This document shows, in pieces, positions 11,480 through 35,225 of a stretch of 37,730 nt of DNA (within the stretch, counting starts at the first letter, position 1; every line of letters begins with the position of its first letter). Location: positions 1 through 37,730 of the forward strand of contig JAGVON010000067.1 in assembly GCA_020052735.1 (NCBI GenBank), given 5' to 3'. A program made the position numbers and the translations under genes. This DNA is from an archaeon (GTDB taxonomy: Archaea; Micrarchaeota; Micrarchaeia; Anstonellales; Bilamarchaeaceae). The notes under the pieces are model-generated. The model was not told the DNA's origin and ran no database searches. It saw only the letters and a program-made list of their open reading frames with translations.

Positions 11480-11553
11480 GCCCTCATAGTCTAGCTTGGA
11501 TAGGACGCAAGCTTGCGGAGCTTGGAACCGGGGTTCAAATCCCCGTGAGGGCG
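11480..11553 (+). tRNA. tRNA-Arg (anticodon GCG)
   Basis: I folded the cloverleaf by hand. The acceptor stem is GCCCTCA/TGAGGGC (7 of 7 paired). The D-stem is GTCT/GGAC. The anticodon stem is CAAGC/GCTTG with loop TTGCGGA. The T-arm is CGGGG-TTCAAAT-CCCCG. The discriminator is G. It is 74 nt long and CCA is not encoded. Confidence 0.85.
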
Positions 11554-18837: not shown

Positions 18838-18856
18838 GATGGGGATTTGCAGGAAG

Positions 18857-18866
18857 TATTTATATA
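18857..18866. promoter_or_regulatory. Single TATA box shared by two divergent transcription units
   Basis: TATTTATATA sits in a 50-nt spacer. It is centred about 25 nt from the minus-strand ATG at 18837 and about 26 nt from the plus-strand ATG at 18888. Confidence 0.5.
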
Positions 18867-18887
18867 CTTTACAGAAGAGTGGAAAAG

Positions 18888-20171
18888 ATGCGGGGTTGGC
18901 TGTTCGCGTTCGTACTGCTTGGGCTAGCCTTCGCTGCTGCCCCCGAAGTGCACCTGCCTAACCTGGACCCGTTTGAGAACCCGCTGCTCATCGGGGCGAT
19001 GATTCTTCTGGCGGTCTCGTTTTCCGCGCTGGCATACGCCGTGTCCACCGCCATACAAAACCCCTCCGCAATCGCCTGGAGCAAGGACATGGTGAGGGAA
19101 ACCATAGCGGGCGTGATAATAGTCGCAATAGTGTATGGGGCTGCGGTCACCGCGAACGGGATGATAGTGGGCATGACCGGGTACGGAAGCCTTACCGAAG
19201 TGGGCTCGGGGCCGACCGAACTCGGCTCGGCCGCCCTTGACCCGCTTCTTGGGGACCTGGAGATGGTCTACGGGAAGGTCGCAGAGGCGTATTTCTCCGT
19301 GGCGGTGCAGCAGGGCACCTCCATGAGCGTCACGTTCTCCGTGCCCCCTGTAAAATTCTTCTTCCTGCAGCCGGCGATATATTACGCGAGGGACATGATG
19401 CCGTATTACGGGATGGCGCCCATGCTGCAGTCGCTAACCCAGAGCTCCTACCAGCTCACGATACAGATGCTGAGCCTGAAGATGGTGAAGGTTTTCCTGG
19501 TGTATATCGGCGCGGTGGTGCCCGGCTTCCTGCTCCCGCTCGGCTTCGTGTTCAGGATTTTCCCGCTCACCAAGAAGGCGGGCGACACGCTGATAGCCCT
19601 GAGCCTCGGGGGCCTGTTCATGCTGCCGGCGTCCCTCATAGTGGTCAAGGAGATGCGGGACCTGGCCGGCTTCGGGAACGCGGGGAGCGCGGTCGGCTTC
19701 GTGAGGACCGAGAAATTCTACGATAACGTGGAGCCGACGCTGTTCTCGCAGCAAAGCGCGGCGCTGGTCAGCGGGCTGTGCCAGAACACCGCGGTAAAAG
19801 TGATATTCGGGTTCGGGGAGATGTTCTGGGGGATCCTCTACGCGCTCATAATGCTGCTGATGCAGAACTATGATTTCTTCGGGAATTTCAACACCTTCGT
19901 GAGCCAGATATGGCCATGGATAATATACGCGCTGCAGATGCTTTATGCGACCGTGCTCACCGCGATAGCGGAAAGCGCCGACTCGGGGGCCATGTATGAC
20001 CGGACGATACAGCCCATAGTGCAGTACCTGTTCCCTGCGGTCAGCGAGATAACCGCCTTCTCCATCATTTCCATAATCATGATCGCGGTGATAACATACG
20101 GCGGGACAAGGGCGGTCTCAACCGCGCTGGGCGGCGAGTACTCATTCGCCGGCATAACGAGGATGGTATGA
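18888..20171 (+). CDS. Polytopic membrane protein, paralog A of a six-member family (unknown function)
   Basis: It has a signal-like N-terminus and then TM1, which ends in ALAYA. The post-TM1 motif is NPSAIAWSKDMVRE. The core motif is LPLGFVFRIFPLTKKAGD (19533-19586). The C-terminal tail is LGGEYSFAGITRMV. I preferred the ATG at 18888 over the track's GTG at 18879. Confidence 0.8.
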   Translation: MRGWLFAFVLLGLAFAAAPEVHLPNLDPFENPLLIGAMILLAVSFSALAYAVSTAIQNPSAIAWSKDMVRETIAGVIIVAIVYGAAVTANGMIVGMTGYGSLTEVGSGPTELGSAALDPLLGDLEMVYGKVAEAYFSVAVQQGTSMSVTFSVPPVKFFFLQPAIYYARDMMPYYGMAPMLQSLTQSSYQLTIQMLSLKMVKVFLVYIGAVVPGFLLPLGFVFRIFPLTKKAGDTLIALSLGGLFMLPASLIVVKEMRDLAGFGNAGSAVGFVRTEKFYDNVEPTLFSQQSAALVSGLCQNTAVKVIFGFGEMFWGILYALIMLLMQNYDFFGNFNTFVSQIWPWIIYALQMLYATVLTAIAESADSGAMYDRTIQPIVQYLFPAVSEITAFSIISIIMIAVITYGGTRAVSTALGGEYSFAGITRMV

Positions 20172-21049
20172 TGAGGGGAATTGCGATTATCATGGCTCTC
20201 GTCTCCTTTTCCTCGGCCGGCTGCGGCATAATGGACACGGACGCCAACGTGGCGTTCACGCAGGCGCTCCCGATCATAGGCGCGGCGATCGCGCTTTCCA
20301 TCGCAGTGGCGGCGCTCGCCTACATGGCGGGCAGTTTCATGAGGAACCCCAACCTGCTCGTTTTCAGCAAGGACCAGATATTCCACACGTTCGTTTCTGT
20401 GCTCCTTGTTATCTCAATAGAGGGGATATTCTATGGGACGTGCATGTTCGCCAGCAGCGCGGCCGGCAGCGACCTGCAGTCCGCTTCCCTCAATTACATG
20501 CGGGAACTGCGGGTGGACGGCGGCCAGATGCTCGCCCAGATAATGAAACGCTCAATTGAGTATAAGTTTGAGGCAGCGTATTATACGGCATACCAGGTCC
20601 CGTACATGGGAGGGGAGGCCTATTGGTGGGAGGCATACAACAACGCATACGCCCGCAACCTGGAGATGCTGTTTGACTTCGTGATGGTGGGGTATGTCAG
20701 CGCGGGCGTGCAGTACAACCTCCTCGGGATGCTGCCGCAGATTGCGCTGGGCGTGATGGTGCCGATGGGGCTCCTGCTGCGCTGCATCCCTAAGGCGAGG
20801 GAGGCGGGAAACATGGTGATGGCGCTCGCCCTTGCGCTTTATGTCGTGATTCCGTTCTGCTACGCGGTCGCATCAACCATGAGGGAGACGGAGGTGCCGT
20901 GGTTCACCGGAGCGCCTGACGACACGGGCATCTCTTTTGAGGACGCGGGGCTGTACCTGTTCCAGACAATATTCCTGCCGAACCTCGCCTTGGTCGTGTT
21001 CGCGACCGCGGTGGGCGGGCTGATGAAGGTGGCTAAGGTGATACCATGA
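20168..21049 (+). CDS. Polytopic membrane protein, paralog B (shortest member)
   Basis: It overlaps A in ATGA. It has a lipobox-like SSAGC, then AALAYMAGSFMRNPNLLVFSKDQ. The core motif is VPMGLLLRCIPKAREAGN (20759-20812). Confidence 0.8.
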   Translation: MMRGIAIIMALVSFSSAGCGIMDTDANVAFTQALPIIGAAIALSIAVAALAYMAGSFMRNPNLLVFSKDQIFHTFVSVLLVISIEGIFYGTCMFASSAAGSDLQSASLNYMRELRVDGGQMLAQIMKRSIEYKFEAAYYTAYQVPYMGGEAYWWEAYNNAYARNLEMLFDFVMVGYVSAGVQYNLLGMLPQIALGVMVPMGLLLRCIPKAREAGNMVMALALALYVVIPFCYAVASTMRETEVPWFTGAPDDTGISFEDAGLYLFQTIFLPNLALVVFATAVGGLMKVAKVIP

Positions 21050-23337
21050 GGGCTGCACGCATATTCCTGCTCACATTCGCATTCCTCCTTGCCGCGGCCT
21101 TCGCGCAGGGCAGCGCGGGGGAGATACTCGCAGGCGTGCAGGAGCAGCCCGGGCTGCTCGGCAGCATAGCAAAGGACTGGCAGGTCTATACTGTGGCAGT
21201 GATGCTGCTGATGGCGGGGCTTGTGGCGCTCGCGTATGCGATAGCGAACTCGTTCTCGCTGCCCGACCTGAGGGCATGGGCGGACGTGGAGCTGGGGGAG
21301 ATATTCGCCAGCGCGCTCCTGCTGATGTTCATAATAGGGATAATATCGTTCATAGACGTGAGCGCCGCAGGCATACTCGGCCCGAGCTTCCCGAGCTCCT
21401 GCGAAAAGCCGGGCTTCTGCCCCGCGAACATCGCCTCGGACTACCTGGACAGCTACCTGAAGGCCGCGAATTCCGCATACAGGACAACGATGGTCAACAG
21501 CATAGACACCGCGAACGACGCGTTCGCGGGCAGCACGGTCGGCATACAGGACCTTATATACGGCTACCTCACGTACAGGTTCAGGGACAACCCCGAGAAG
21601 ATGATACAGGTGGAGATGTACGACCAGGTCCTGCAAAACCTCTCCGCAGTGCTGGCCTCGCTCGGGATGCAGAAGTTCATGCTGAAGTTCATGACATTCA
21701 GCGTAGCGCCCGTTGCGATATTCCTCGGCATTGTGCTGCGCTCTTTCTTCCTCACGCGCAAGATGGGCGGCCTCCTGCTTGCGTTCGGGCTGGGCTTCCT
21801 TGTGGTATACCCCCTCACTTATGCGCTGGCGTGGTACACGCTGGATGCGGCGATTTACGGGGCGCAGAAGGGCCCGAGCGGTACGCTGAACCCCTGCCCG
21901 AAAGTGTGCCTGCCGTTCTCCAAGGTGGTTGACCTTTCGGAAACGCCGCTCGTGGAGGTGCCCATGGAAACGGTGAGGGAGGACTTCCATGGCCAGTGCA
22001 TGGCTGAGCTGGAGAGCGACGGCATAGGCGAGACGGGCCGCTCAAACACCTGCATGGACGCATGCAGGGATGATGTGGATTCAACAGGGCGCTCGGATAG
22101 CTGCATGGACGGATGCACCGCAGGGATAGATTCCACGGGCAGGAGCGTACCGTGCATGGACGGCTGCATGGGGCAGTACTTCTTCAACTGCCAGGCAAGG
22201 TGCGCGGAACAATGCACCGAGGCGGGCTATGAGATGCCCGCGGCGGAGTTCCCGGACCCCGCGGTTGTCGCCAGGTGGGAGGAATGCATGGACCCGTGCA
22301 TGGAAGCGGAGAACTGCGACGCGACTGGGGTGGAAAGGACATCTTATTGCCAGGCAAACGAATGCCCGGTCGTGATAGGGGAGCTGGCTAGCGGGGTGGA
22401 ATACTGCCAGGCAACGGAGTGCGGCGTGCTGCCAGGATACACGGGCGAAGAAACGGCGTACTGCGAAGGGCAGTGCACCCCCCTTGAAGGGTTCGGGGGC
22501 AGCAGCGAGGAGTATTGCGACCATGAAACGGATGGGATGGTGGCACGGCTGGGGAGAACGGGCGGGGTGGCGGTGGGGAGCGGGGCGGATTACCACTCAT
22601 ACGGGTATTGCCCTGTGGACCCGTGCGGGTTCCCGATACCCTACCAGAAAAAGGAGTGCCTCGGATACACCGGAACCCCTAACATATGCAACACAAGGCC
22701 GTTCCAGCCCGACGACCCGGCATATGCGATGATGGACGCGAGCGAACTGGTGGACGGGTGCCCCGCGGAATGCAGGACGCTTGCGCCGATGGCGCCTGGC
22801 GCTGAATGCTTCAACCGGAAGAGCATACGGCAGGATGACGGGACGTACAAATACGAGCCGCTATGCCCGTCGCAATGCATGTGGATAACCACGGGCGGGG
22901 AGACGGACCGGACGTGCCCGGACGAATGCAGGGAATTCTATCCGGCACACCCGCAGGAGCTCTGGGACGCGAAGGCCTCGGACCAGACCTGCGTGTACAT
23001 AATACCTGATGTTGTTTTTGACGAGCCGGACACGTGCTCGCAGTGCGCGTTCGTTGCGGAGAAGGGGCTCACGATGGAGCCCGCGATGATATGGGACTGC
23101 ACCGCGTTCTGCGGCGCACCGAGTTCAACGGTGATGGGGCAGGACCCGGCCACGATGACGAACAACATAGGCGGGATGCAGGGGCCGACTGATGTCATAG
23201 CGGTGAGCAAGCTGATGGTGCCTGCCTTCGTGCTCCCGATTTTCTGCCTTGCGGTGACGCTGATGTTCGTGATGTCGCTTTCGCCCATGCTTGGCGGCGA
23301 CATAGACATACCTGGGATGATGAGGATGATGCAATGA
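21046..23337 (+). CDS. Polytopic membrane protein, paralog C, with a roughly 400-aa Cys-rich ectodomain insertion
   Basis: It overlaps B in ATGA. It has VALAYAIANSF…LRAWADVELGE. The core motif is IFLGIVLRSFFLTRKMGG (21718-21771). After the core hairpin comes a Cys-rich insert (about 21892-23115). The terminal TM helix is followed by the tail LGGDIDIPGMMRMMQ. Confidence 0.85.
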   Translation: MRAARIFLLTFAFLLAAAFAQGSAGEILAGVQEQPGLLGSIAKDWQVYTVAVMLLMAGLVALAYAIANSFSLPDLRAWADVELGEIFASALLLMFIIGIISFIDVSAAGILGPSFPSSCEKPGFCPANIASDYLDSYLKAANSAYRTTMVNSIDTANDAFAGSTVGIQDLIYGYLTYRFRDNPEKMIQVEMYDQVLQNLSAVLASLGMQKFMLKFMTFSVAPVAIFLGIVLRSFFLTRKMGGLLLAFGLGFLVVYPLTYALAWYTLDAAIYGAQKGPSGTLNPCPKVCLPFSKVVDLSETPLVEVPMETVREDFHGQCMAELESDGIGETGRSNTCMDACRDDVDSTGRSDSCMDGCTAGIDSTGRSVPCMDGCMGQYFFNCQARCAEQCTEAGYEMPAAEFPDPAVVARWEECMDPCMEAENCDATGVERTSYCQANECPVVIGELASGVEYCQATECGVLPGYTGEETAYCEGQCTPLEGFGGSSEEYCDHETDGMVARLGRTGGVAVGSGADYHSYGYCPVDPCGFPIPYQKKECLGYTGTPNICNTRPFQPDDPAYAMMDASELVDGCPAECRTLAPMAPGAECFNRKSIRQDDGTYKYEPLCPSQCMWITTGGETDRTCPDECREFYPAHPQELWDAKASDQTCVYIIPDVVFDEPDTCSQCAFVAEKGLTMEPAMIWDCTAFCGAPSSTVMGQDPATMTNNIGGMQGPTDVIAVSKLMVPAFVLPIFCLAVTLMFVMSLSPMLGGDIDIPGMMRMMQ
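22033..22167 (+). repeat. In-frame 51-nt (17-aa) tandem repeat inside paralog C
   Basis: TGRSNTCMDAC, TGRSDSCMDGC and TGRSVPCMDGC start at aa 330, 347 and 364, an exact 17-aa period. At nucleotide level each unit is ACxGGxxGxxxxxxxxxxTGCATGGACGxxTGC. Confidence 0.8.
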
Positions 23338-24404
23338 GGCAAACTGGACGGCTGTTGCTGTTGCTGGCGCTCCTTTCGCTCTCCTTCGCGGCCGGCGAGT
23401 CCCCGGACTGGGTTCCAATTGCGCTGCTCGCCGCCTTCACCGGGCTCGGCGTGCTTGTGATATTCTACCTCATCAGCTATGTTGTTGAGGCGGACCAGAT
23501 GAGGTCCATGGCCATTTCCGAGATGTGGCAGGTCGTCATAACCGCGGTGATGATCGCAGGGTTGATCGGGGCGCAGGCGCTGGCCACGGAGTTCGGCGCG
23601 GGGATGGCAGGCGATTTCGGCGCAGAGCCTGGCGACACGCAGCTGGATTTCGCAGTGAAGGTCACCCAGGCGACCGTTGAGTACCAGTGGGGCACCCTGA
23701 TGGATTATACAAACAATGTAGTGCTGCCGATGGGCGACCTCGCGTCCCTCTCCGGGAACTGCTGGCTGTTCGGGGTGGCATTCACATATTCAGGATGCGC
23801 GAGCATAAACGTGCCCTTCTCCTCAGCGTCCCTCGCGGCGAGGACCATGGCGATGGCGATACTGGCGCTGAACTCGCAGCTGGTGCTTCTGAAATTGGCG
23901 GGCAGCTTCTTCTTCCCGGTGCTGCTGCCGGTGGGGCTGTTCATGCGCACTTTCCACGTTACTAGGGGCACCGGGGGCTTCCTCATCGCGTTCGCCGTGG
24001 CGTTTTATTTCGTTTATCCCCTTGCAACGGTGCTCACGAAAGGGATGGCGGACATGGTCCCCCTCTCCTCAACCGGCGCCTCCTACCCTGGCATAGACCA
24101 GGTGTACGCGGACGAGACATGGGAATTCAGCAACGTTTACACATTCACGGTGCCGGCGGAATGCGACCCGTTCAAGACGTATGATTACCCGGAGACGGAC
24201 GAGTTTGAGGGATTCGGATACACGCAGAACCAGGTGAACAACCTGCTGAACGAAAACCTGATGGACCCGCTGCTGTTCATCTTCATGATAGAAGGGATAT
24301 TCAGCCCCGCGCTGAGCGTGCTGATTACGCTAGCGGTGCTGCGGCCCCTGACAAGGGCATTCGGGACCGAGGTTGACGTTTCGGCCCTAGGGAGGGTGTC
24401 TTAG
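23334..24404 (+). CDS. Polytopic membrane protein, paralog D
   Basis: It overlaps C in ATGA. The core motif is LPVGLFMRTFHVTRGTGG (23925-23978). The tail is FGTEVDVSALGRVS. Confidence 0.8.
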   Translation: MRQTGRLLLLLALLSLSFAAGESPDWVPIALLAAFTGLGVLVIFYLISYVVEADQMRSMAISEMWQVVITAVMIAGLIGAQALATEFGAGMAGDFGAEPGDTQLDFAVKVTQATVEYQWGTLMDYTNNVVLPMGDLASLSGNCWLFGVAFTYSGCASINVPFSSASLAARTMAMAILALNSQLVLLKLAGSFFFPVLLPVGLFMRTFHVTRGTGGFLIAFAVAFYFVYPLATVLTKGMADMVPLSSTGASYPGIDQVYADETWEFSNVYTFTVPAECDPFKTYDYPETDEFEGFGYTQNQVNNLLNENLMDPLLFIFMIEGIFSPALSVLITLAVLRPLTRAFGTEVDVSALGRVS

Positions 24405-25556
24405 ATGGTGTGCGCGGACATAAGCTGGCTGTATTCCCTTTCCGTGCTTTCGCTTGGGGTCACCCTAGTGGTCCTGGGCTTGGCGTACGCGCTGGGGCAG
24501 CTCCTCAGCAACCCCCAGTTCAACGTATGGGCAAAGACGGAGATGTTCCAGGTGTTCATTTCGTTCTTCCTGGTCCTGCTCGTGCTCTTCATGAGCGGCT
24601 CAATGTGCCACTTTAAGTATGCGGACCTTGCCGGGCTGGGCCCGGCAAGCAGCAACCCGCTGGACCTCTCCGCAAACCAGTACGCATACACGCATCCGGA
24701 AATCCTCCCGGAGGACAATATGATAAATGCGTCTGGGAAATACCTCGCGAACGTAGCGTATTTCATAAACACCGAAATGAGGGCGGCACGCGCCCTGTAC
24801 GGGATTTCGGACGAGGCGTCAAGGTATTCGCGCACCCCGTGCATGCCTGCCGCGACATTCTGCCTGTACGGGACCAGCGGATACACCGTGAGGCCGTACT
24901 CCGGGCTGAGCAGCTGGTCGCAGATACTCGGGTTCTCGCTCTACACCGACACCGCCTCATACCTGACCGTCCTCATACAGATGGCTCTGCTCGCGTTCAT
25001 ATCCGGGGGAGGGATAATGGCGTACCTGCCGCTTGCGATAATACTGCGCTCGCTCCCGTTCATGAGGCAGCTCGGGGGCGGATTGCTGGCGATATGCATA
25101 GCCCTGTTCATCATCTACCCTGCGCTGCTCACCGTGGAGTCCCTGTTCTGGAACCCATACCAGATGATTGGGGACGGCTGGGGCACGCTTGTGGATGCGG
25201 CGAACAGCATGGGCAGGGGATTCTCGTATGTGAGCGCGGGGGCGTATGCGGAGACCATGGCCGCGGCGCTTCTCCTGGCGGGCGCTCTTCTGGACCTGGC
25301 CGCGATAATAGCCGTGGCTGTTTCGGCTGGGTTTGTGAGCGCGGTGCTCGCGATAGTAAGCGCGGCGGGCGGCCAGTGGACGCTGGACACGTTCAATGCG
25401 GCGGTGCAGGTGAGCATGCAGGCGTCTTCCATATCCTTCTTAAGCGCGACGTTCCTCCTTTCGCTGAACATAATAGCCATAGGCGCGTCCGCACGGGAGA
25501 TTGGAAGGCTGTTGGGGCAGGAAGTAGACCTGAGCAGGCTTATGCAGGTGTTGTGA
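24405..25556 (+). CDS. Polytopic membrane protein, paralog E
   Basis: Its ATG directly abuts the TAG of D. It has LGLAYALGQLLSNPQFNVWAKTEMFQ. The core motif is LPLAIILRSLPFMRQLGG (25026-25079). The tail is LGQEVDLSRLMQVL. It has no signal-like prefix. Confidence 0.8.
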   Translation: MVCADISWLYSLSVLSLGVTLVVLGLAYALGQLLSNPQFNVWAKTEMFQVFISFFLVLLVLFMSGSMCHFKYADLAGLGPASSNPLDLSANQYAYTHPEILPEDNMINASGKYLANVAYFINTEMRAARALYGISDEASRYSRTPCMPAATFCLYGTSGYTVRPYSGLSSWSQILGFSLYTDTASYLTVLIQMALLAFISGGGIMAYLPLAIILRSLPFMRQLGGGLLAICIALFIIYPALLTVESLFWNPYQMIGDGWGTLVDAANSMGRGFSYVSAGAYAETMAAALLLAGALLDLAAIIAVAVSAGFVSAVLAIVSAAGGQWTLDTFNAAVQVSMQASSISFLSATFLLSLNIIAIGASAREIGRLLGQEVDLSRLMQVL

Positions 25557-26564
25557 ATGGCTGCGGAGGATTTGTTCCACTGGGCGTTTGCGGGCTGGGG
25601 AGCCGGCGGGTTCTGGTTCGTAAACTGCATACTTGCGATACTCATAACCGCGGTGGTGATGGGGACCATCTACATAATCTCATACGCCTTCAACATGGGC
25701 GGGCTGAAAAGGTTCGCGGTGTCGGAGTTCTACCAGCTTGCGGCGACGGCGGTGCTGGTCATTTTCCTGGTCGTGATAGTTGAGAACGGGCAGGAGTTTT
25801 TCCTTTCCAGGTACCCCGGCGGGATAATCTGCCAGGGCGCGGTGGTGCACAACACCGTGGAGGCTGCGATGTGCCGCACCGAGGAGCGGCTCACGTATTT
25901 CAGCAACGCGTTCAATAGCATACGGGACAGCAGCGACCTCGCGGACAAGGAGCTCAGGTACTATTCATCCATGTCGCTGTTCGGCATAATATTCTGGCAG
26001 GGGAACTTTGACGCCAGCCTGCACAAGTACGTGGAGACGCAGCACGCGATAGCGTACAAGCTGGTTTCGCTGATGATTTCGCTCAACAGCCAGGTTTTCG
26101 TGCTTAAATACATATTGGAGAACATGCTGGTGTTCTTCCTTCCGCTTGGGATAGTGCTCAGGACCCTGCATTTCACGCGCGGCATAGGCGGTTTCTTCAT
26201 CGCGCTCGCGGTTTCCTTGTATTTCATCTATCCGGGCATGCTCTTCATAATGGACGCGTCATACGGCCCCGCCGCGCCGGAGATGCCGTCCTCAATATCA
26301 AACCGCGCGGACTTCTGCAACATACCTATATTCTCGGGGATGTCGCTGGGGGCGGCCACGCCAGAGGGGCAGAGCACGAGGAGCGCGGCGTCAATATCCG
26401 TAAGCACCTCCAACCTTGCGTCGTTCATGTCGCAGGTTTTCGTGAAGCTGTTTTACGACAATATGGTTGCGCTTTCAATAGCGGTCGTGGCAATGAGGTA
26501 CATGACCATGCTGCTCGGTGGGGACAGCAGCGTGTTCCTGCAGATGATGGGGAGGTGGGTGTGA
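25557..26564 (+). CDS. Polytopic membrane protein, paralog F
   Basis: Its ATG directly abuts the TGA of E. The core motif is LPLGIVLRTLHFTRGIGG (26139-26192). The tail is LGGDSSVFLQMMGRWV. Confidence 0.8.
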   Translation: MAAEDLFHWAFAGWGAGGFWFVNCILAILITAVVMGTIYIISYAFNMGGLKRFAVSEFYQLAATAVLVIFLVVIVENGQEFFLSRYPGGIICQGAVVHNTVEAAMCRTEERLTYFSNAFNSIRDSSDLADKELRYYSSMSLFGIIFWQGNFDASLHKYVETQHAIAYKLVSLMISLNSQVFVLKYILENMLVFFLPLGIVLRTLHFTRGIGGFFIALAVSLYFIYPGMLFIMDASYGPAAPEMPSSISNRADFCNIPIFSGMSLGAATPEGQSTRSAASISVSTSNLASFMSQVFVKLFYDNMVALSIAVVAMRYMTMLLGGDSSVFLQMMGRWV

Positions 26565-29500
26565 TGAAGGGCATTTTCTTTGTCTTGGCTTTCGCTTTCG
26601 TGATGGGGGCGCTCGTGCTTCCGGGCTGCGTGGCGCCGCAGCCGTCGTTCAGCAACTGCTGCATGTATGCAAACGCGAGCGAGGACGGGCGCTGCATAAC
26701 CGCAGACCGCACGGAATACGAAATAGCCGGAGAAGGGTGCGACCTCCTCAACATGGCATGCAACGTCACTCTCGGGGAGGGGGATGAGGCGCACGACGAG
26801 CTCCTGCCCATCTGCCCGAAGTCCGAGCTGCTGAAGTGCAACAGCAGCTGCGTAGGGATGTTCTGCGGCTCCTTTGAGTTTGACCCCAGGCCGCCGATAT
26901 CGCTTGACGCGGAGGACATGAACGATTCCCGCGACACCGGGGATGCGGACACGGGCCAGTTCGGGGGGACTGACAGGGGCGGGGCGAAGGGATTGTACAA
27001 CGGGGAATGCAAGTTCCTGAACATGAGCCCGGCCACCCTGCGCGCCACCGCCAACACGAACGGGGGCTTCGCGCTCAACAGCTTCAGGTTCGGCGTCGGA
27101 GATTCGTTCGCGGATTTTGACGAGGCGAGCATGTACTACCCGCTGACGGACTTCGCATGCAAGATAAACCTGCTCGGCACCACGGACAGGTATGCGAACT
27201 ACGCGATACCGAACGTGCTCGTATCCGGGAAGATATGCAGCCCTCCGAGCCCGGGGGACAACAAGTGGATGTGCATACCCTCCACTTCTCCTGGAGAGGA
27301 GCCCATCTGGGCATATTCCTATTTTGACTGCGCGACGAAGTGCCTGCTCCAGTGGCAGGGCGATTATGCGGGGATAGACCCGGACAGCGCTTACCTCACG
27401 GAGAGGAACGGGCAGGCGCTGGGGAACCCGTTTGCCTACGGGGCAGCCGCGGCATCGCCCTGGGGGCCGCTGATAAACGACAAGGACTACAAGAGCGCCG
27501 TGGTGGAAAGCTCGTTCTACGACGGATATCCGCTCGGCTATAATTATTATGGCGCGGATTTTGAGAGGGACGACCGCCAGCTGGGCCCGGACAGGGGAGG
27601 GATAGATGGGCTGCTCGCGGAGCAGGGAAGCGGGGAATTTATTGTGCAGGGCGATGTGATGGACTATTATGCGGGCGCGGAGGCGGATTTGCCTGTCATG
27701 GAGTGGGACAGCCTGCTTGAGAATTTCGTTACCGTGGAGAGGGAGCCGCACAGGATGTACAACTTCCTGCTCACTTACCATTCAGTCTATTCAAGGCAAT
27801 TCCAGGACGGGCACTACCTGGCGGACGGCTCCTGGGCGAATGGGGCGGAGTTTGAGTGCACGCTTGAGAACAACGGCTGCCTCTCGGGCTACTGCAACAT
27901 ATTTGACTACTCGCGCGGTGTTTGCCAGAACATGGACGACCTGGCGAAGGATGCTAACTGCGACTGCATGTATGATTTCAACGAGGGGGGCGTAGTGTGC
28001 ACCGGAAAGAAATTGCTGAATTCCGCTTCCTGGGACAGGTACGGGGATGCCACCTCCAACATAGAAGTGGCGACCACCCTTGCGGCGCCGATAGACCGGA
28101 TAGGGGACTCGCCCTTCACGCACACCTCCATGCCTTCCAAGGGGAGGATTGTGAAATTCAACCTGGACAACCCGGACTACATAAGCGGCATAGCCGAGGC
28201 GGACCGGAACGACATAGAGAGGCCCTTCCTCGTAATATTCCTTGGCGGCGAGGACACCGTGCCGCAATATACGGTCCGCACAGGGGAAGGGGGCACATCA
28301 TACGGGGACATGGCGGGTGAGGACGTGAGGTGGGACACCCTCACGATACCGCAGGTGCTCTCAAGGGAGAAGTGGGACGGGTGCGGCGGCGACTGCGGGA
28401 AATTCTACACCACGTTCGTGGACCAGTGCGTGCCCACTTATGAGGAAAACCCGGGGTTCTATGCGGACAGCTTCAGCGTGTGCTATGCCGGGGATAACCC
28501 GAGGACCGGATGGCGCGGCATGTACCTGGACACGGACGGGACAATCAAGGACGAAAATTGGAACTGCCAGGGGCTTGAGCTCTTCAACAGGCAACACGTG
28601 GACGGGAAGGGTGACGGCAGGTCGTGGCAGGTGTATTGCTACGCGCGGGACGAGGACGGGAACTGCGAGGCGTATTCTGTTTCCGCGCTCGTGATAAGGG
28701 GAAAGGACGTCATTTACACGGACGCGGATGGGAACGAGGCGGAGGGGCAGGCGTTCGGGAAGTGCCTGCTGGACGGGAATGGGAACCTCCTCACAAAGAC
28801 GTATGGCTACTGCGAACAGTGCGGCTACCTGACCATGGCGAAGGACAGCGTGGTCGCCCTGCCCGAGGAAAAGGACGACCCGGGATACGAGGCGCTGCGC
28901 GGAAGCGGCGGGAGCGCGCAGCGGAAGGACAATAAGTATTGCCCCTCGCTCATGATAAGCACCATTTATTCGCCTGCCGCCTCTTCGTCCATAGAAAGCG
29001 CGCCCCCTCCGCTCGTGGAATGGGAAGGGGAGGGCGTGCATCCTTCAAGCGATGATGAGGATGATTCGTACTACAGGAGCCAGTGCACGATGCCGGACGG
29101 TAGCGAAGTCGGGATGGAAGAGGCATGGCCGGACTACCTTCCGAATGCGTATTACCTGAAGTCAAAGCTGCAGGATTACCTTCAAAGGAACATAATGCCC
29201 GTGCTGTTTGCGGACGACGATGGGCTGTATCGGGCGAGGACTTCGGACAGCGAGCCGTACAAGGACAAGCCCGTGCTGCAAATCGGATTCACAGACCATT
29301 ATGAGGAGATACAGGCGGCCACGACCACTCATCCGCTGCTTGCCGAGATGTGGAGCCGAAATCCGTCCACTTCATATTTTGACAAATACGCGCAGGCAGG
29401 GGACCAGCCGTATGCGTACAGCACGCAGGGAACATATCTTGCGGATTCGGTGATGGACCTGGGCGCCGGGATAATAGTTGTGAAGAACCTGAGCGCCGAT

Positions 29501-30799
29501 TTTGTGGAGGGCTCTGGCATCACTACCGGGCTGGGGTGGAGGTCCGGTTCGGTGAGGGCAATGTGCCCCAATTGCATGGTCGCGGTGGCGGCAGGCTACG
29601 ACGAGGGGAAGGGCTCGCATGAGGAGAAGATGCGGCTGGTTTCACGGCTCTTCGGGTACGGCATGAGATATGGGTCAGGGGAGCCGCTCTGGGAGGACTA
29701 CTCATACAACATGTCCTGCGCAAACGGGGAGGTCCCGTGCCTGTATGAGCGCCTGGATTATGCGGACGTGATTGCGGTGGACTGGACGCTGGGGGGGAGG
29801 AACTCCCACTGCGACATTGAAGGCCAGGACGAAAGGTTCGCCGCGATACTGGCGGACGAGATGGAGTTCGGCTCAAAGATGCTCAGCAGGTTCGGGAAGC
29901 CGCTTGTGGTTACGGACCTCACCATAATACGGCGCGAGGGTGCGATTTATGACGAGGGGGTTAGGGACTGCTGGGACGAGGAGAGCGCGGCGAGGTTCGT
30001 TGGATACCTCGGCCAGCATACGGAAGACCTGATAAGGAGCGGCCATATCGGCATCATTTATGGGGATTGGAGCTATGGGCATTCAAGTGGCACCTCCGGC
30101 CCCACATACATAAGGACGCAGGAGAGCATAGCCGGAGGGAGCGTGGGCGGATACAGGGGCCCGCTCTACGAAGGCACCCTGTTCGCCGCAAGGGACTTCT
30201 CGGGATACGGCAGGATGATTTCATTGATAGAGGTGCCTGTGAAGGAGAGCTGCGCCTGCGTGCCATGCACATCCACGGACCCGGCGGAGATATGCAACGG
30301 CCAGTACGCGGGGAGCGGGGCGCTGTGCGAATGGGAGGGCGCGCGCGTGATGGTCAAGTGGCCAGACGACTGCATAACCGGGGATGCGTGCATGCCCGAG
30401 GGCGAGATTGCGGGATACTTCATGGACTGCACGATAGTGGCGGGCGGGCAGGAAACCTCGTTCAGCGCGGATGGTGCCGATGTCGCGGCTAACCCCGAGC
30501 TTTACAAACAGATGATAGCGTCCATAAGCAACACGGTGGAAAGGCCGTGCTTCATGGGAAAGACATACGGAAAAACAGAGATAACGCGGTTCCTCTCCCA
30601 CCCCGTGCTGTTCAGGACGGACGGGAACCTGAGCTATACATGCAACCCGCTTTCCGCGGCAGAGGGGGCGCTTTGCGGCCCCACGCCCAGCCTGGACCTA
30701 GGGCAGATGGACTGCACGCTGAGGCCGAAGATGGGCGGCATTGTTCCCGGGGGCGGCATTCCGTTCCCTGACCTGCCCAGCGGGCCGATAGGAGGATAA
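26564..30799 (+). CDS. Giant (about 1411 aa) Cys-rich secreted or lipoprotein-like protein, unknown family
   Basis: The ATG at 26564 shares one base with the TGA of F (TGATG); the track lists an upstream GTG at 26555. The signal peptide MKGIFFVLAFAFVMGALVLPGC has a lipobox-like Cys. I counted about 50 Cys by eye. There are many N-x-S/T sequons and no further TM helix. Confidence 0.8.
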   Translation: MKGIFFVLAFAFVMGALVLPGCVAPQPSFSNCCMYANASEDGRCITADRTEYEIAGEGCDLLNMACNVTLGEGDEAHDELLPICPKSELLKCNSSCVGMFCGSFEFDPRPPISLDAEDMNDSRDTGDADTGQFGGTDRGGAKGLYNGECKFLNMSPATLRATANTNGGFALNSFRFGVGDSFADFDEASMYYPLTDFACKINLLGTTDRYANYAIPNVLVSGKICSPPSPGDNKWMCIPSTSPGEEPIWAYSYFDCATKCLLQWQGDYAGIDPDSAYLTERNGQALGNPFAYGAAAASPWGPLINDKDYKSAVVESSFYDGYPLGYNYYGADFERDDRQLGPDRGGIDGLLAEQGSGEFIVQGDVMDYYAGAEADLPVMEWDSLLENFVTVEREPHRMYNFLLTYHSVYSRQFQDGHYLADGSWANGAEFECTLENNGCLSGYCNIFDYSRGVCQNMDDLAKDANCDCMYDFNEGGVVCTGKKLLNSASWDRYGDATSNIEVATTLAAPIDRIGDSPFTHTSMPSKGRIVKFNLDNPDYISGIAEADRNDIERPFLVIFLGGEDTVPQYTVRTGEGGTSYGDMAGEDVRWDTLTIPQVLSREKWDGCGGDCGKFYTTFVDQCVPTYEENPGFYADSFSVCYAGDNPRTGWRGMYLDTDGTIKDENWNCQGLELFNRQHVDGKGDGRSWQVYCYARDEDGNCEAYSVSALVIRGKDVIYTDADGNEAEGQAFGKCLLDGNGNLLTKTYGYCEQCGYLTMAKDSVVALPEEKDDPGYEALRGSGGSAQRKDNKYCPSLMISTIYSPAASSSIESAPPPLVEWEGEGVHPSSDDEDDSYYRSQCTMPDGSEVGMEEAWPDYLPNAYYLKSKLQDYLQRNIMPVLFADDDGLYRARTSDSEPYKDKPVLQIGFTDHYEEIQAATTTHPLLAEMWSRNPSTSYFDKYAQAGDQPYAYSTQGTYLADSVMDLGAGIIVVKNLSADFVEGSGITTGLGWRSGSVRAMCPNCMVAVAAGYDEGKGSHEEKMRLVSRLFGYGMRYGSGEPLWEDYSYNMSCANGEVPCLYERLDYADVIAVDWTLGGRNSHCDIEGQDERFAAILADEMEFGSKMLSRFGKPLVVTDLTIIRREGAIYDEGVRDCWDEESAARFVGYLGQHTEDLIRSGHIGIIYGDWSYGHSSGTSGPTYIRTQESIAGGSVGGYRGPLYEGTLFAARDFSGYGRMISLIEVPVKESCACVPCTSTDPAEICNGQYAGSGALCEWEGARVMVKWPDDCITGDACMPEGEIAGYFMDCTIVAGGQETSFSADGADVAANPELYKQMIASISNTVERPCFMGKTYGKTEITRFLSHPVLFRTDGNLSYTCNPLSAAEGALCGPTPSLDLGQMDCTLRPKMGGIVPGGGIPFPDLPSGPIGG

Positions 30800-30831: not shown

Positions 30832-33800
30832 ATGAGGAAGGGTTTGCCAGCCGTGGTTATTCTGGTTGCGGCAATCCTTTCCATGGTTCCGGGCATCGTT
30901 TGGGGGGAATATGGAGGAGGCCCTGCGCCCGGCATCTCAAATCCGCTCATCCGCGTGGACATAACGGGGGTGCATGTGATAAGCCCGCAGGAGGTCTGCC
31001 CTTCGTGCAGCATATTCACTACGCAGCCTTTTATGGCGCCGTCCATAAACGAGGAAGAGGAAACCGTCTCCGTGAGCATGGGGGTCATAGATGCGGGCGG
31101 CCTGAGCCCGGTGGAGGGCGCCACGATTTTCGCATATGTGCAGAGGCAGGATGGGAGCAATGCGCAGGCACCCTGCAGGGTATACACCAATGAGAACGGG
31201 AGCGCAAAAATCAGCTACAACCCGGAGGAATGCCGGGATGGGTGCACGACGAAGTTCTTCTTCTGCTGCGCAGACCCGGTCGCGCTGGCATGCGTGCTGG
31301 AGCCGTGCCTCGGCCAGCCGGTTGCCGCATACACGGACATACCCGCATGCGCCGGATACGGTGGGGAATGGCCATCCCCTGCAACCATAGATGGGGAGGA
31401 GGTACAGCTATATCCCACGCTTGAGACTGCATTCATCCCGCCCCAGACGGTGCTGCCGGAATTTGACTACACGTTCACCTTATGCTTCCCGCTGCTGGTG
31501 ATATTCGGGTTCCTGGGGGCTGCGATGTACGCTTCGGGGAGGGACCCGTTCGCGATGTTTTCATTCTATACCCCCAGGTTCACGAGGGGGGCCGAGAGGC
31601 CGATACAGGGAAGGGGATACACCATACCCGGCTCCTCAATAATAAACGTCGCGATGAAGGCGACCGACCTTGCGACCGGTAAGACAACCGCGAAGGAGAT
31701 GTTCACCAGTTCCATGGAGCAGAGCTCCATGATAGCGAAAACAAAGGGCGCCACGGGCGAGCTTGGCTCAGGCACGGGCAGCAGGGCTGCGGCTGGCAGG
31801 GCAGGCGCTGCGGCAGAAGAAACCAGCAGGACCTCCGCAGACCGCATGGCGGCGGGAGGAGGTTCCGGTGCGGTGCTGGGCATGAGCCTCGGGGTGTCAG
31901 AACAGATGATGCGCCCCGGCGCGGCTGGGGTCGGGGTGGGGACCGCGCTTCTTGCGCTGCTGGGGATAATGCTTAGGTTCTCAAACGCTCCCTGGCTTAC
32001 GGGCGGGCTGGCCCAGAAATTGATCGGCATTGCTGAAGCGTGGCAGGCGGAACGCGTCGCGAGCTATGCGCAGACTTATGCGGCGCCAATATCCTCAACC
32101 GTTCAGACGCAGTTTGACTCCGAGGGATATGTGGCAAAACTCACTTACAGGGACCCGCAAAGCGGCCAAACGATTGTTGTGGAGGGGCGGGAGGCATGCG
32201 CAGCGTTCATAGATTCCGTTACGACGGGCCTGTATTTATCCTCCCAGGCAGGAAGCAATGCTGCAACCGAACTCATGAGCAACTTCAACGAAAGGATTGC
32301 AAACCTCCAGCACCCCACAGCAGGGGCGAGGGAGCTGCTCAGGGTGGAAGTGGTCAGGGCTGAGGGGCCTGCCGAGGTCCTGGATGCACTGGGAACCCTG
32401 GCTGACCTGAACTCCTCGGCTGCAAAGAGGCGCGAGGCGCTGGAGATTGTCGCCGGCTCCGACCAGGTTTCGGAAGATGTGAAGATAGCCGCCTTCGTTG
32501 CAGCCACGGAAGGCATGACGTACCACCAGTTTGCGCAGTTCGTTGGCGCGGAAGGAACGGCCGCGAACAGGATATTTTTGGAGCTCGTCTCCAACTCCGC
32601 GGCGCTCAATGAGAGGCTGGACGGGAAGATTGACGGGAACATGCTTGGGGCGCTTGGGGCCGCCGCGGAGCGGCTTGAGCAGCTTAACGGAAGCAGGAGG
32701 GAGGGGCAGGCGGACAGCCTGGGCTTGGGCACGAGTGTCGTTGCAATAAGAAGCGGCATTGGTGAATGCCACGGGGATGCGGATACGTTCGTATTCAGGC
32801 AGGGCACCGAGGAGGCCGCCGCGAAGATGGCTGCTATGGGATTGTCCGGTGCTGCGCTGGACACGCGCATAAGTTTTGATGAAATAGGGGGGCAGCGGGT
32901 TGTTCTCGGCCACATACAGGATGACGAAGTGCGCGCGGAGATTGAAGCAGCCACGGACAGCGAGGGAAATATAGACATATCAAAGCTAAGCGGAAAGGCG
33001 AGAAGCGAGTTGGGAGACGTGATTAACTACCAGCTCAGGGAGGCGGTGGTCAGCGAGTACAATACAGCATATTCCGTGCAGCAGGAGGCGGATTTCAAGA
33101 ACGGGGATTCGGACGAAGCGAAGGCGGTGAGGGCCTTCCAGGATGCGCTGGGGAACTACGAGGCGGCTTCGCAAAGCTCCTATTCCCTTATTGACAGGTA
33201 CGTGACCGGGCCTGCTATGGCTGAGGTTGGCGGGTTGCTGGATAGCAATCCGAATCCTGTGGATAGCCAAGGAAGGTTGACAACGATGGTGCTGCCCGAG
33301 CACCTTGCAGCGGATGACGTGAAGAGGATAATGCAGGACCATGGCGTGGACCCGGAGCTGGCCAGCATAGTCGCAGGCATCAGCGGGGCGGAGGCGCAGG
33401 CGAATTTTGCAACCGGGCTTCGCGAGGGGCTGGGGTCGCTGACGATGGGGCCCGCGGAGTTTCACGGGCAGAATGCAGACAAAGCATATGGCGACATTGG
33501 CGAAGTGGACCGCCAATTGGCAGAATTCAATGCCGCTGTGCAGACGCTCCAAAACCCGGATGCAACTGCAGAAGCGAAAGAGCAGGCGAGGGGCATCGTG
33601 GCTGCGGGCGCATTGATTGTGGCGGACCACGTGCCGGATGATATGGGCAATCTAATCCCGGTAACACTGTGGGAGCATGTGCAGGGGGAGGCAAGCCGCA
33701 TCATGGGCGACCAGAATGCGAGCCAGGCGGACAAGCAGTGGGCGCAGGAGGTCAGCGGCATAAACCCGGAAACGGCGCTGAGTGACGAAAGGCAGGTGGC

Positions 33801-34908
33801 GGTGCTTTGGCAGGAGTACAACACGCATATGGGGGAGCAAAAGGACGCGCTGAATGCAGAGATGGAATCCAGCAGGAATATGGAAACCATATTTGCGCTT
33901 GGGCCGCCCCTTGACCATCCCCCTTCCAATGAACAGGAAAGGATTGTGGCGCAGGAGAGGGAAAGCGCGCTGCGGGCTGCGGTAGAGCAATACGCAACCT
34001 CGGCGTATTCACAAGCCGAAGCAGGTGTAACGCCAGATATTGGGCAAATAATATTAGGCACCATGTACGGAAACCCGAATGAACGGGAGATGCTGGACGA
34101 GGCGAGGTCAGGCCTGCCCCCTGCTGTTCAGGGACAGCTTGACGTGTTCCTTTCGGATACAGCGTCAGATGAGGAGAAATCATCCGCCTTGACTGTGCTC
34201 GTGCCTGCCTTGGATACTTATTACAGGTATGCCGAAAATCCTGCTGACGACCGGCTAACCGCAGCGGACCGCGGAGATGCCCAGTGGGCGGTGCATACGC
34301 TCCAAAATTCGGAGGACCTTGCGGCAAGGGCGCAGGCAGCGGATGTCCTAAAAGGGCTTAGGGGCGTCTCGGCAGAGGCGCAGCCGGGGATAGATGCGCT
34401 GGTTGCCACGGCGAACGTGCCGCCCTCGCAATTTAGCGAGGAGCAAAAGGCAAGCCTTGGCACAGCAGCACCAGTTGTCCAGGAAAGGCTGGATATATAC
34501 TTTGATACTGTGGGGCTTGACAGGGCAGTTTCGGATCCGGATGGGACCCGGCTCGGGCTGGCAAACGACTATGCCGCAGGCCGCCAGACGGAACTGGAAC
34601 AACTCAGGCAATATGCACTTGATGGCGGCAGTGCTGTGGGCAGGGCCCAGTACGAGAACGCACAAATACAGATTTCCCTCCTTGGGAATGAGGCGATAGA
34701 AAAGTTCTATGCGGATATGAACAGGAACAGGGAAATCGCGGAACAAGCTGCAAAGAGCATATCGGAACACAGGCCCGAGGGCGGAACCGGGGAAGGCGCA
34801 GGCGGCGCCGGAGGGCAGGGAGGCGGCACGGCATACAGCTCGGCCGCAAGAAGGACTTCCGAATCCAGGAGCCAGGGGCAAGTGCCGGATGAGGAGATAC
34901 CTAGGTAG
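30832..34908 (+). CDS. Giant (1358 aa) bitopic or two-TM protein, unknown family
   Basis: It has a signal-like N-terminus (PAVVILVAAILSMVPGIVWG) and a roughly 190-aa Cys-containing ectodomain with a prealbumin/CarboxypepD_reg-like stretch (GATIFAYVQRQDGSNAQAPCRVYTNENGSAKISY). TM helix 1 is LCFPLLVIFGFLGAAMYA. A Ser/Ala/Gly-rich loop follows. TM helix 2 is VGVGTALLALLGIMLRF. About 950 aa of Ala/Glu/Gln-rich, probably helical sequence follows. It ends in a Gly-rich tail. Confidence 0.8.
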   Translation: MRKGLPAVVILVAAILSMVPGIVWGEYGGGPAPGISNPLIRVDITGVHVISPQEVCPSCSIFTTQPFMAPSINEEEETVSVSMGVIDAGGLSPVEGATIFAYVQRQDGSNAQAPCRVYTNENGSAKISYNPEECRDGCTTKFFFCCADPVALACVLEPCLGQPVAAYTDIPACAGYGGEWPSPATIDGEEVQLYPTLETAFIPPQTVLPEFDYTFTLCFPLLVIFGFLGAAMYASGRDPFAMFSFYTPRFTRGAERPIQGRGYTIPGSSIINVAMKATDLATGKTTAKEMFTSSMEQSSMIAKTKGATGELGSGTGSRAAAGRAGAAAEETSRTSADRMAAGGGSGAVLGMSLGVSEQMMRPGAAGVGVGTALLALLGIMLRFSNAPWLTGGLAQKLIGIAEAWQAERVASYAQTYAAPISSTVQTQFDSEGYVAKLTYRDPQSGQTIVVEGREACAAFIDSVTTGLYLSSQAGSNAATELMSNFNERIANLQHPTAGARELLRVEVVRAEGPAEVLDALGTLADLNSSAAKRREALEIVAGSDQVSEDVKIAAFVAATEGMTYHQFAQFVGAEGTAANRIFLELVSNSAALNERLDGKIDGNMLGALGAAAERLEQLNGSRREGQADSLGLGTSVVAIRSGIGECHGDADTFVFRQGTEEAAAKMAAMGLSGAALDTRISFDEIGGQRVVLGHIQDDEVRAEIEAATDSEGNIDISKLSGKARSELGDVINYQLREAVVSEYNTAYSVQQEADFKNGDSDEAKAVRAFQDALGNYEAASQSSYSLIDRYVTGPAMAEVGGLLDSNPNPVDSQGRLTTMVLPEHLAADDVKRIMQDHGVDPELASIVAGISGAEAQANFATGLREGLGSLTMGPAEFHGQNADKAYGDIGEVDRQLAEFNAAVQTLQNPDATAEAKEQARGIVAAGALIVADHVPDDMGNLIPVTLWEHVQGEASRIMGDQNASQADKQWAQEVSGINPETALSDERQVAVLWQEYNTHMGEQKDALNAEMESSRNMETIFALGPPLDHPPSNEQERIVAQERESALRAAVEQYATSAYSQAEAGVTPDIGQIILGTMYGNPNEREMLDEARSGLPPAVQGQLDVFLSDTASDEEKSSALTVLVPALDTYYRYAENPADDRLTAADRGDAQWAVHTLQNSEDLAARAQAADVLKGLRGVSAEAQPGIDALVATANVPPSQFSEEQKASLGTAAPVVQERLDIYFDTVGLDRAVSDPDGTRLGLANDYAAGRQTELEQLRQYALDGGSAVGRAQYENAQIQISLLGNEAIEKFYADMNRNREIAEQAAKSISEHRPEGGTGEGAGGAGGQGGGTAYSSAARRTSESRSQGQVPDEEIPR

Positions 34909-34916
34909 GTCTGTAC

Positions 34917-35225
34917 ATGCAGGAAACACGCCCGCTCAGGAGGTTGCGCAGGCACCTTTCAATAGAGAATTTGTGGCTCTATATCTTATCATTAATCAAG
35001 AGAGAGGAATGCTATGCATACACCCTCCCTGAGCAAATAGAGAAGGAGTATGGGTTCAAGCCCAGCCGCGTGATGGTGTATATCGTATTGCACATGCTGG
35101 AGGGCGAGGGGCTCATAAGGGGCGAGCAGAAGGAGAGGCGGAAGTATTATACGCTCACGGAAAAGGGGGACGAGACGCTCAAGGAAGCAAAAAAGGAGAT
35201 GAAAAGGCTCTCCGAAAAGTTATGA
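34917..35225 (+). CDS. PadR-family winged-helix transcriptional regulator
   Basis: 102 aa. …ENLWLYILSLIKREECYAYTLPEQIEKEYGFKPSRVMVYIVLHMLEGEGLIRGEQKERRKYYTLTEKGDETL… matches the PadR pattern. It starts 8 nt after the stop of the giant gene. Confidence 0.75.
   Translation: MQETRPLRRLRRHLSIENLWLYILSLIKREECYAYTLPEQIEKEYGFKPSRVMVYIVLHMLEGEGLIRGEQKERRKYYTLTEKGDETLKEAKKEMKRLSEKL

Follow-up and report, generated by a model that had tools for sequence, protein, structure and literature searches.

In the Ced system of Crenarchaeota, CedA and CedE are VirB6-like proteins and CedB and CedD are VirB4-like. CedA is the channel of this DNA-import system, and the N-terminus of VirB6-like proteins resembles VirB2 pilins (PMC9905601). 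CedE, a paralogue of CedA, is a VirB6-like protein with five transmembrane (TM) segments (bioRxiv 10.1101/2024.09.27.615246). Two reports on the rvh type IV secretion system (T4SS) of Rickettsiales describe tandem VirB6 paralogues with giant extensions (PMC2653234, PMC7648143). Here we describe a locus from an archaeon of the Micrarchaeota (Anstonellales; Bilamarchaeaceae), carried on a contig of 37,730 nucleotides (GenBank assembly GCA_020052735.1, contig JAGVON010000067.1) that was analyzed at its full length and is referred to below as the window. One operon in it encodes six paralogous membrane proteins (A–F), a cysteine-rich protein of 1411 residues (G), a second giant protein (H) and a regulator. 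We put the chances at about even that G is a lipid-anchored, disulfide-rich extracellular subunit of a Micrarchaeota envelope machine whose membrane core consists of A–F and H. The genes of the operon are as follows:

18888–20171, + strand: paralogue A, a five-TM membrane protein encoded at the head of the operon, with a conserved ATGCGGGG start (the program-made open reading frame begins at GTG 18879)
20168–21049, + strand: paralogue B, with a lipobox-like SSAGC
21046–23337, + strand: paralogue C, with a 41-cysteine ectodomain between TM4 and TM5
23334–24404, + strand: paralogue D, with weak matches to CedE (residues 196–240) and CedA (residues 156–232)
24405–25556, + strand: paralogue E
25557–26564, + strand: paralogue F, whose stop overlaps the start of G
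26564–30799, + strand: gene G, a 1411-residue cysteine-rich predicted lipoprotein in an uninterrupted open reading frame
30832–34908, + strand: gene H, a 1358-residue membrane protein with a signal peptide and TM segments at 214–232 and 363–381
34917–35225, + strand: PadR-family regulator, the last gene of the operon, kept in homologous loci

This module resembles the Ced and Ted systems of Crenarchaeota in its polytopic five-TM core, in weak CedE and CedA matches that fall within a helical hairpin of the paralogues, and in a CedB/CedD/VirB4-class ATPase encoded in three related arrays. It differs in having six fixed paralogues where Ced and Ted have one or two, in lacking an ATPase or a recognizable VirB2-like pilin gene wherever G is present, and in its giant partners G and H, which are without Ced/Ted counterpart; the similarity, moreover, lies far under the family thresholds. 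Like the rvh T4SS described in the two reports cited above, it has four to six VirB6-like paralogues in tandem, some of them well over 1000 residues long, and is found in host-dependent, genome-reduced organisms. This likeness is an analogy only: the organisms belong to different domains of life, the extensions here are extracellular cysteine-rich inserts, and the VirB8–11 scaffold is absent.

The placement of G within the module is strongly conserved. Every close locus from NCBI, Logan and GTDB shows the genes in the order A-B-C-D-E-F-G-H(-PadR), and A through H are arranged likewise in ten distant loci from JGI. In these, the hidden Markov model (HMM) that scores best for a paralogue is that of its own position, and the protein after F is a G homologue of 1320–1720 residues with 66–100 cysteines and a GC...YVPCC start. 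Both the F–G linkage and the A-F-G-H order persist across loci in which G identity is about 30% or less. The original prediction for this stretch, an earlier reading of its DNA letters, had suggested that G may be an adhesin or enzyme cargo held by the paralogue complex, and had pointed to orthologues beside the same paralogue set as a check. The tie to the paralogues stands, given this gene order and the coupling of F to G; the enzyme part is unproven, and we prefer "extracellular subunit" to "cargo." That six paralogues occur in fixed order argues for a hetero-oligomer containing one copy of each.

Coupling of F to G extends to the base level. The TGA of F (26562–26564) and the ATG of G (26564–26566) have the A at 26564 in common (gtgTGATGaag), as the original prediction had read it, and a putative ribosome-binding site for G lies just upstream, within the end of gene F. 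The program-made open reading frame of G starts three codons earlier, at a GTG; we take ATG 26564 as the start because all homologues begin M(K/R)G.... The gaps between F and G in homologous loci (−1, −1, −4, 0 and +41 nucleotides) indicate that overlap or abutment recurs. The concern, raised at the outset, that the reading frame might be a fusion created by mis-assembly was ruled out, since full-length homologues covering 97–100% of G exist in ten independent assemblies. Mature G has a computed mass of ~151.5 kDa and isoelectric point (pI) of 4.3. Its features are:

26551–26557, + strand: GGAGGTG, a Shine-Dalgarno-like site read from the sequence, 6 nucleotides 5' of the G ATG
26564–26629, + strand: signal peptide and lipobox, residues 1–22, ending ...LVLPG-C22
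26630–27343, + strand: N-terminal hallmark domain, residues 23–260, the best-conserved part in distant homologues
29141–30208, + strand: TIM-barrel-like (beta/alpha)8 domain, residues ~860–1215, predicted by AlphaFold2 and Foldseek
30209–30733, + strand: predicted C-terminal beta-rich domain with 12 invariant cysteines and CxCxxC at 1230–1235, from AlphaFold2 and the alignment
30734–30796, + strand: Gly/Pro-rich tail, neither hydrophobic nor conserved

We searched for G homologues among 5.8 billion protein clusters, by sequence and by profile, with a word prefilter that limits reach. Both searches returned the identical set of 16, among which the sole informative name was a DPANN label and none contained a Pfam domain. 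G is present in 12 species-representative genomes, 11 labelled Candidatus Micrarchaeota or Micrarchaeia and one "Candidatus ainarchaeum sp." Nine more distant homologues were reached only through loci fetched via the C-type paralogue; these range from 1320 to 1720 residues and contain 66–100 cysteines, and all nine open with a lipobox and, after it, ...Y(V/I/L)PCC. Their similarity to G is concentrated in the N-terminal 210–230 residues, and domain matches at positions 1–230 of the G HMM in the nine distant loci have independent E-values of 1e-17 to 1e-29. Across the 25 G sequences 72 columns are invariant, ~45 of them cysteines. The hallmark domain contains a CC at 32–33, ten early cysteines and the motif LNxFRFGVGxSFxDF(D/E)xAxxY(Y/F)PxTDxxC...DR(Y/F); its invariant residues are N172, R175, F176, G177, G179, S181, F182, P193, D196, R209 and Y213.

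The N-terminus of G, MKGIFFVLAFAFVMGALVLPGC, is the sole hydrophobic segment of the protein. Its signal sequence, MKGIFFVLAFAFVMGALVLPG, has a basic n-region and a hydrophobic h-region and is followed by C22, so that the signal peptide ends in a lipobox with Cys at +1. G21 and C22 are invariant in 16 of 16 close homologues, and in 25 of 25 sequences once the nine distant ones are added. DPANN archaea are predicted to possess many lipoproteins (PMC12462473). G shares with archaeal and bacterial lipobox lipoproteins (AliA/AliB-dependent in Haloferax) the positive n-region, the hydrophobic core and an [L/F/V]-x-G-C with invariant Cys. It departs from them in its length of 1411 residues, in its cysteine content and in having Pro at position −2, a site that is variable across the family and canonically A, S, T, V or I. 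Cys22 is thus probably lipid-modified and the protein lipid-anchored, in line with the lipid anchor originally suggested at LVLPGC. The tail of G is modelled with low confidence (predicted local distance difference test, pLDDT, <50) and provides no anchor, as had also been supposed.

G contains 53 cysteines, close to the earlier count of about 50. They make up 3.76% of its residues, compared with an average of 0.79% for 12 of the window's housekeeping proteins (binomial P ~5e-20), and 52 of the 53 are invariant among the 11 closest homologues (41–75% identity). Without that of the lipobox there are 52 cysteines, an even count consistent with as many as 26 disulfides if they are paired. Three CxxC motifs occur (CEQC 750, CPNC 1001, CVPC 1232) and no CxxCH haem motif, on which ground we rejected a multihaem cytochrome; for an Fe-S protein there was no family match, and a ferredoxin match over residues 1231–1307 in the PDB sequence search was at chance level (E 0.74). 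Two other features proposed for G did not survive scrutiny. N-glycosylation sequons (N-x-S/T) are not enriched, with 8 observed against 6.6 expected from composition. The Asp/Gly-rich stretches put forward as Ca2+-binding are less conserved than the protein overall (mean column identity 0.44–0.48, against 0.57) and have low pLDDT; in the model these stretches probably lie in disordered segments, and we rejected conserved Ca2+-binding motifs.

No Pfam or NCBIfam family matched G or six divergent homologues significantly, and a PDB sequence search with G and with its profile returned nothing above chance. These searches gave no match to a known S-layer or adhesin family, which the original prediction had named as a finding that would speak against it. 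Residues 836–1411 were modelled with AlphaFold2 from a 16-sequence alignment (model m837e6a6e9850; mean pLDDT 72, predicted TM-score 0.61, TM-score being the template-modelling score). The model contains eight successive beta/alpha units at residues ~880–1215, with pLDDT mostly 75–90. In a Foldseek search of the PDB with this model the top 50 matches were all TIM-barrel proteins, the best being the galactanase 6gp5_B of glycoside hydrolase family 53 (GH53; E 3.8e-3, probability 0.99); GH2, GH51, GH10, GH5 and GH1 enzymes and DERA aldolases also matched, and a viral library gave similarly weak GH5-like matches. Clan GH-A (GH53, GH2, GH5, GH10) accordingly heads the Foldseek list and has in common with G the eight beta/alpha units predicted at residues 860–1215. 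G differs from the clan in lacking its catalytic Glu/Glu pair and any sequence-profile match, with structural matches at E 3.8e-3 or above. The early impression of a TIM-barrel hydrolase at residues 1000–1150 is thereby upheld in part: the barrel-like fold has weak support, whereas the hydrolase lacks both a catalytic pair and a GH family match. The barrel residues invariant in the 25 G sequences are Y864, D1068, G1160, G1163, Y1166 and W1169, a pattern that is no less compatible with carbohydrate binding than with catalysis.

We next consider the membrane paralogues. A–F are true paralogues (cross-HMM E-values of 1e-9 to 1e-34), all six combining five TM segments with a hallmark hairpin, LPxGxxLRxFxFTRxxGG...YP. 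Of 1.84 billion representative proteins, 2965 matched the family profile at E ≤1e-3, and 2136 still did so at E ≤1e-10; the named relatives are all Micrarchaeota, Anstonellaceae or "ainarchaeum." A word-indexed search with the paralogue profile yielded close relatives alone. The long members are C-type orthologues of 1100–1680 residues in which the TM4–TM5 ectodomain is greatly enlarged; they have 80–140 cysteines and repeated CPxxC(R/K) motifs, and contain no Pfam domain. H also carries a Cys-containing ectodomain, together with a long Ala/Glu/Gln-rich region. Pfam and NCBIfam scans of H, A–F and the upstream genes up1–3 gave no significant family, and PDB sequence searches with H and two paralogue profiles gave nothing above chance. 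Two observations concern individual paralogues of the window: residues 1–19 of B form a signal peptide ending in SSAGC, so that part of the membrane core may be lipid-modified, and C contains a threefold repeat, (D/E)(S/T)(T)GRSxxCMDxC.

To look for distant kin we scanned 59 diverse members of the A–F family singly against NCBIfam and Pfam. The most recurrent NCBIfam matches were to CedE (4 members; best E 4.2e-5) and CedA (3), followed by HacB_Meth (2) and a pilin-like protein of a Mycoplasma integrative conjugative element (ICE) (2); the most recurrent Pfam match was T4SS_pilin. In paralogue D of the window the CedE and CedA matches both fall in the hallmark hairpin, the stretch that runs from TM3 through a loop to TM4. 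Weak T4SS_pilin and VirB2 matches lie inside some paralogues, and the resemblance of the VirB6 N-terminus to VirB2 pilins would explain the pilin matches of the family. No small two-TM pilin gene of the VirB2/CedA1 kind was recognized in G-type loci. The signals, each weak singly, agree in theme. We consider it slightly more probable than otherwise that the A–F family is related to Ced and T4SS proteins.

At least four types of array were present among the loci we fetched. Types i and ii comprise A–F with G and H, in close and distant forms, respectively. In type iii (L062, 2010–15473; L063, 2998–19534; L066, 9512–25353) the six paralogues are followed by two paralogous 275-residue membrane proteins, which have two to three TM segments and match no family, and by a P-loop ATPase of 512–514 residues. 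This ATPase, encoded directly after the six paralogues, matches CedB (6.1e-19), CedD (8.5e-19) and, at 6.9e-17 and weaker, VirB4 families. The type iii arrays also encode a Lys/Glu-rich 265-residue protein, an 800-residue protein with an N-terminal TM segment and a Cys-rich secreted protein of 730–780 residues. Some of their paralogues carry LLSGC lipoboxes of their own. Type iv arrays (L048, L053, L055, L059, L061 and L069) have the six paralogues and, upstream, a divergent H-like gene, and lack G. The H-like protein has ~2060–2140 residues in L055, L059, L061 and L069 and 1691 in L048; in L053 the end of the contig cuts it short. In L053, L055, L061 and L069 the array is immediately followed by SecD/SecF genes. 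Since types i, ii and iv all contain the first TM segment and the juxtamembrane stretch that make up the conserved core of H, most arrays examined consist of six paralogues plus H. G is a widespread, not universal, addition to them.

IMG/VR viral contigs contained nothing related to G or to the C-type paralogue, and we rejected a viral or mobile-element origin. The operon is like the surrounding DNA in GC content, and no tandem DNA repeats occur in it. The module is chromosomal, and it appears to belong to the core of the phylum Micrarchaeota and to be passed on vertically.

If G is the lipid-anchored subunit that we propose, it would be exported by Sec, after which Cys22 would be lipid-modified and the signal peptide removed. 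Its 52 remaining cysteines could form up to 26 disulfides, which would stiffen a 150-kDa acidic ectoprotein. The membrane-proximal hallmark domain would then dock on the ecto-loops of an A–F hetero-oligomer, perhaps including H, while the membrane-distal TIM-barrel-like and Cys-rich beta domains would bind, and possibly cleave, a glycan polymer on the envelope of a partner or host cell. More speculatively, the A–F core may be a remote relative of the VirB6/CedA/CedE channel proteins, and the whole module a derived apparatus for cell-to-cell contact or transfer. The specific form of this idea, in which the module is the long-sought contact and transfer apparatus of DPANN symbionts on the Micrarchaeota side, a hetero-hexameric VirB6/CedA-derived channel is capped by G, the barrel engages the host envelope and the ancestral ATPase has been lost or is encoded elsewhere, is a tentative one that we think rather unlikely to hold in full.

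A number of results weigh against this picture. The CedA and CedE matches fall far under the curated cut-offs (16 bits against 330–400) and occur in only 7 of the 59 members. The A–F profile found nothing among PDB sequences, and an hhalign comparison of the 59-member profile with the single R388 TrwI/VirB6 sequence gave no match, a result that we count on this side, uninformative as a single-sequence target makes it. Neither the window nor any G-containing locus encodes a VirB4/CedB-type ATPase; the sole ATPase near G is a Cdc48-type AAA protein, whose adjacency is confined to one lineage. For G itself, the structural evidence is weak: the best target-normalized TM-score, to GH53 6gp5_B, is 0.38, and none exceeds it. 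The catalytic Glu/Glu pair of clan GH-A was not found in the barrel. Strand 4 reads IIVVKNL, without Glu and with an Asn that is not conserved, so that the Asn-Glu acid/base motif is absent; strand 7 reads VVTD, and its Asp (D1118) is Lys in the nine distant homologues. The domain-by-domain structural search was thus informative in part, with residues 836–1411 leading to TIM barrels, weakly, and residues 1–835 (pLDDT 50.8) yielding Foldseek matches of probability ≤0.04, which are noise.

Some of the same observations could be accommodated by quite different roles. A large, acidic, secreted protein without an enzymatic signature, predicted to be tethered to the membrane and co-expressed in an operon with membrane proteins, might be a structural cell coat (an S-layer or associated sheath), with A–F and H as its anchors and assembly platform and no part in transport or contact. 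The size of G does resemble that of large archaeal S-layer proteins. We nevertheless regard this role as unlikely, as some six-paralogue arrays lack G and related arrays encode a CedB/VirB4-class ATPase. The S-layer protein identified by experiment in Micrarchaeota, SLP_Mh (Micr_00292), is a 101-kDa protein with almost no sulphur-containing residues and with Pfam S-layer N-terminal homology (bioRxiv 10.1101/2021.04.28.441871). Like G, it is a surface protein of this phylum that is large, acidic and secreted, but G, with 53 cysteines and no Pfam S-layer domain, differs from it in kind; on these grounds we rejected G as a canonical S-layer protein. The barrel, for its part, invites the idea of a glycoside hydrolase or polysaccharide enzyme that stands free of A–F and serves in scavenging or in remodelling the cell's own envelope: it has eight beta/alpha units, it draws Foldseek matches to GH53, GH2, GH51, GH10, GH5 and GH1, and the invariant aromatics W1169 and Y1166 lie at a strand end. 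Yet no GH sequence model matches, the strand 4 Asn-Glu and the strand 7 Glu are absent, D1118 is not conserved, and the barrel accounts for only ~350 of 1411 residues. Strict synteny and the start-stop overlap with F, kept across deep divergence, argue instead for a stoichiometric partnership, and we find a free-standing enzyme distinctly improbable.

The lack of a VirB4-type ATPase from G-type loci is also what one would expect if A–F, G and H formed an envelope-biogenesis or cell-division complex, such as a lipid or protein insertase or a membrane-remodelling device, unrelated to T4SS or Ced and with G as a periplasm-like ectodomain. Its housekeeping neighbours (Cdc48, Pelota, FtsZ, KsgA-like and TBP-like, with SecD/F in one array type), its absence from viral contigs and its apparently vertical inheritance as a phylum core feature suit such a complex. 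Set against them are the recurrence of weak Ced- and T4SS-themed matches across family members, the CedB/VirB4-class ATPase directly after six paralogues in three loci, and the huge, fast-evolving Cys-rich ectodomains (80–140 cysteines in C-type proteins), which resemble surface-interaction modules more than biosynthetic machinery; a biogenesis or division role therefore seems to us improbable. Finally, the cysteines of G might be metal- or redox-active, serving metal binding, sulphur handling or electron transfer in place of a disulfide scaffold. Three CxxC motifs, an invariant CxCxxC...C cluster at 1230–1244 and the chance-level ferredoxin match point that way. With zero CxxCH, no significant Fe-S or metal-binding family match, and cysteines that are distributed along all of the ~1400 residues, their even total (52) being compatible with disulfide pairing, we think such a role very improbable indeed. 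A lipid-anchored, disulfide-rich subunit on an A–F and H core is the reading of G that we favor.

Upstream of A, the operon faces a divergent gene across a short intergenic region:

17818–18837, − strand: up1, a secreted protein of 339 residues that has 11 cysteines and is anchored by a TM segment at its C-terminus
18859–18866, no strand assigned: a TATA-box-like element, TTTATATA, ~26 nucleotides from the ATG of A and ~25 nucleotides from the ATG of up1

An inverted repeat, GAAGTAT/ATACTTT, lies on both sides of TTTATATA. A TATA-like element precedes A in 11 of the 12 loci examined (those named for it being W, L001–L005, L008 and L014–L017), with the exact TTTATAT core in 10 and the variant TTTTTATA in L004. 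The up1–A intergenic region (18838–18887, 50 nucleotides) is nearly identical in L001, L002, L003 and L008, despite G identities of 41–50%. We infer from these features that it acts as an archaeal promoter in both directions, giving rise to leaderless transcripts, and that it may include an operator for PadR.

The remainder of the window carries archaeal marker genes, including those for GatD/GatE, Spt5, FtsZ, a Pelota-type eRF1-like protein and Cdc48. The Cdc48-type double-AAA ATPase (11588–14278, +) has an unusually long N-terminus, with ~380 residues before the first AAA domain. Its gene adjoins the module in most close loci, L005 excepted, and not in distant ones, and its orthologue in L004 (1–1458) bears an intein (Intein_splicing, LAGLIDADG_3). 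Between the ftsZ and Cdc48 genes lies a tRNA-Arg (GCG; 11480–11553, +), the sole Rfam/ARAGORN match in the window. An 832-residue DNA methyltransferase with N6_N4_Mtase and D12-class matches (14346–16844, +) sits between the Cdc48 gene and the 190-residue up3; at 41% GC, against ~58% around it, and with no gene at that place in the syntenic L001, L003 and L004, it looks like a recent insertion and is possibly a fused restriction-modification enzyme. A gene of the TnpB/IS605 OrfB type (5109–6251, +; 48% GC), with OrfB_IS605, Cas12f1-like TNB and helix-turn-helix domains, is inserted between a PQQ beta-propeller gene and folD. Adjoining the Pelota gene is one for a 469-residue protein without Pfam match (36294–37703, −), whose position is kept in L001 and L002 (492–496 residues).

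DPANN archaea, Micrarchaeota among them, live in dependence on hosts and have very small genomes. To our knowledge, the proteins that they use for attachment to hosts and for exchange with them are essentially unknown. In the literature that we searched on Iainarchaeota, DPANN, the Micrarchaeota surface, and Cys-rich, S-layer or VirB4/VirB6 proteins, we found no description of this module; a cryo-electron tomography paper on DPANN ascribes its nanotubes to the host and makes no mention of genes of this kind. The module is deeply conserved, comprises eight to nine genes without Pfam or NCBIfam assignment, and spends more than 5000 codons on Cys-rich surface proteins; its membrane-paralogue family alone accounts for ~3000 representative clusters. 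The matches described here provide first, still weak, hints of its kinship to Ced and type IV secretion channels. Should that link prove true, the module would be a concrete candidate for a symbiont contact or transfer machine and a second independent expansion of VirB6-type paralogues in host-dependent microbes, after that of Rickettsiales, and G would rank among the largest and most disulfide-rich predicted archaeal lipoproteins.

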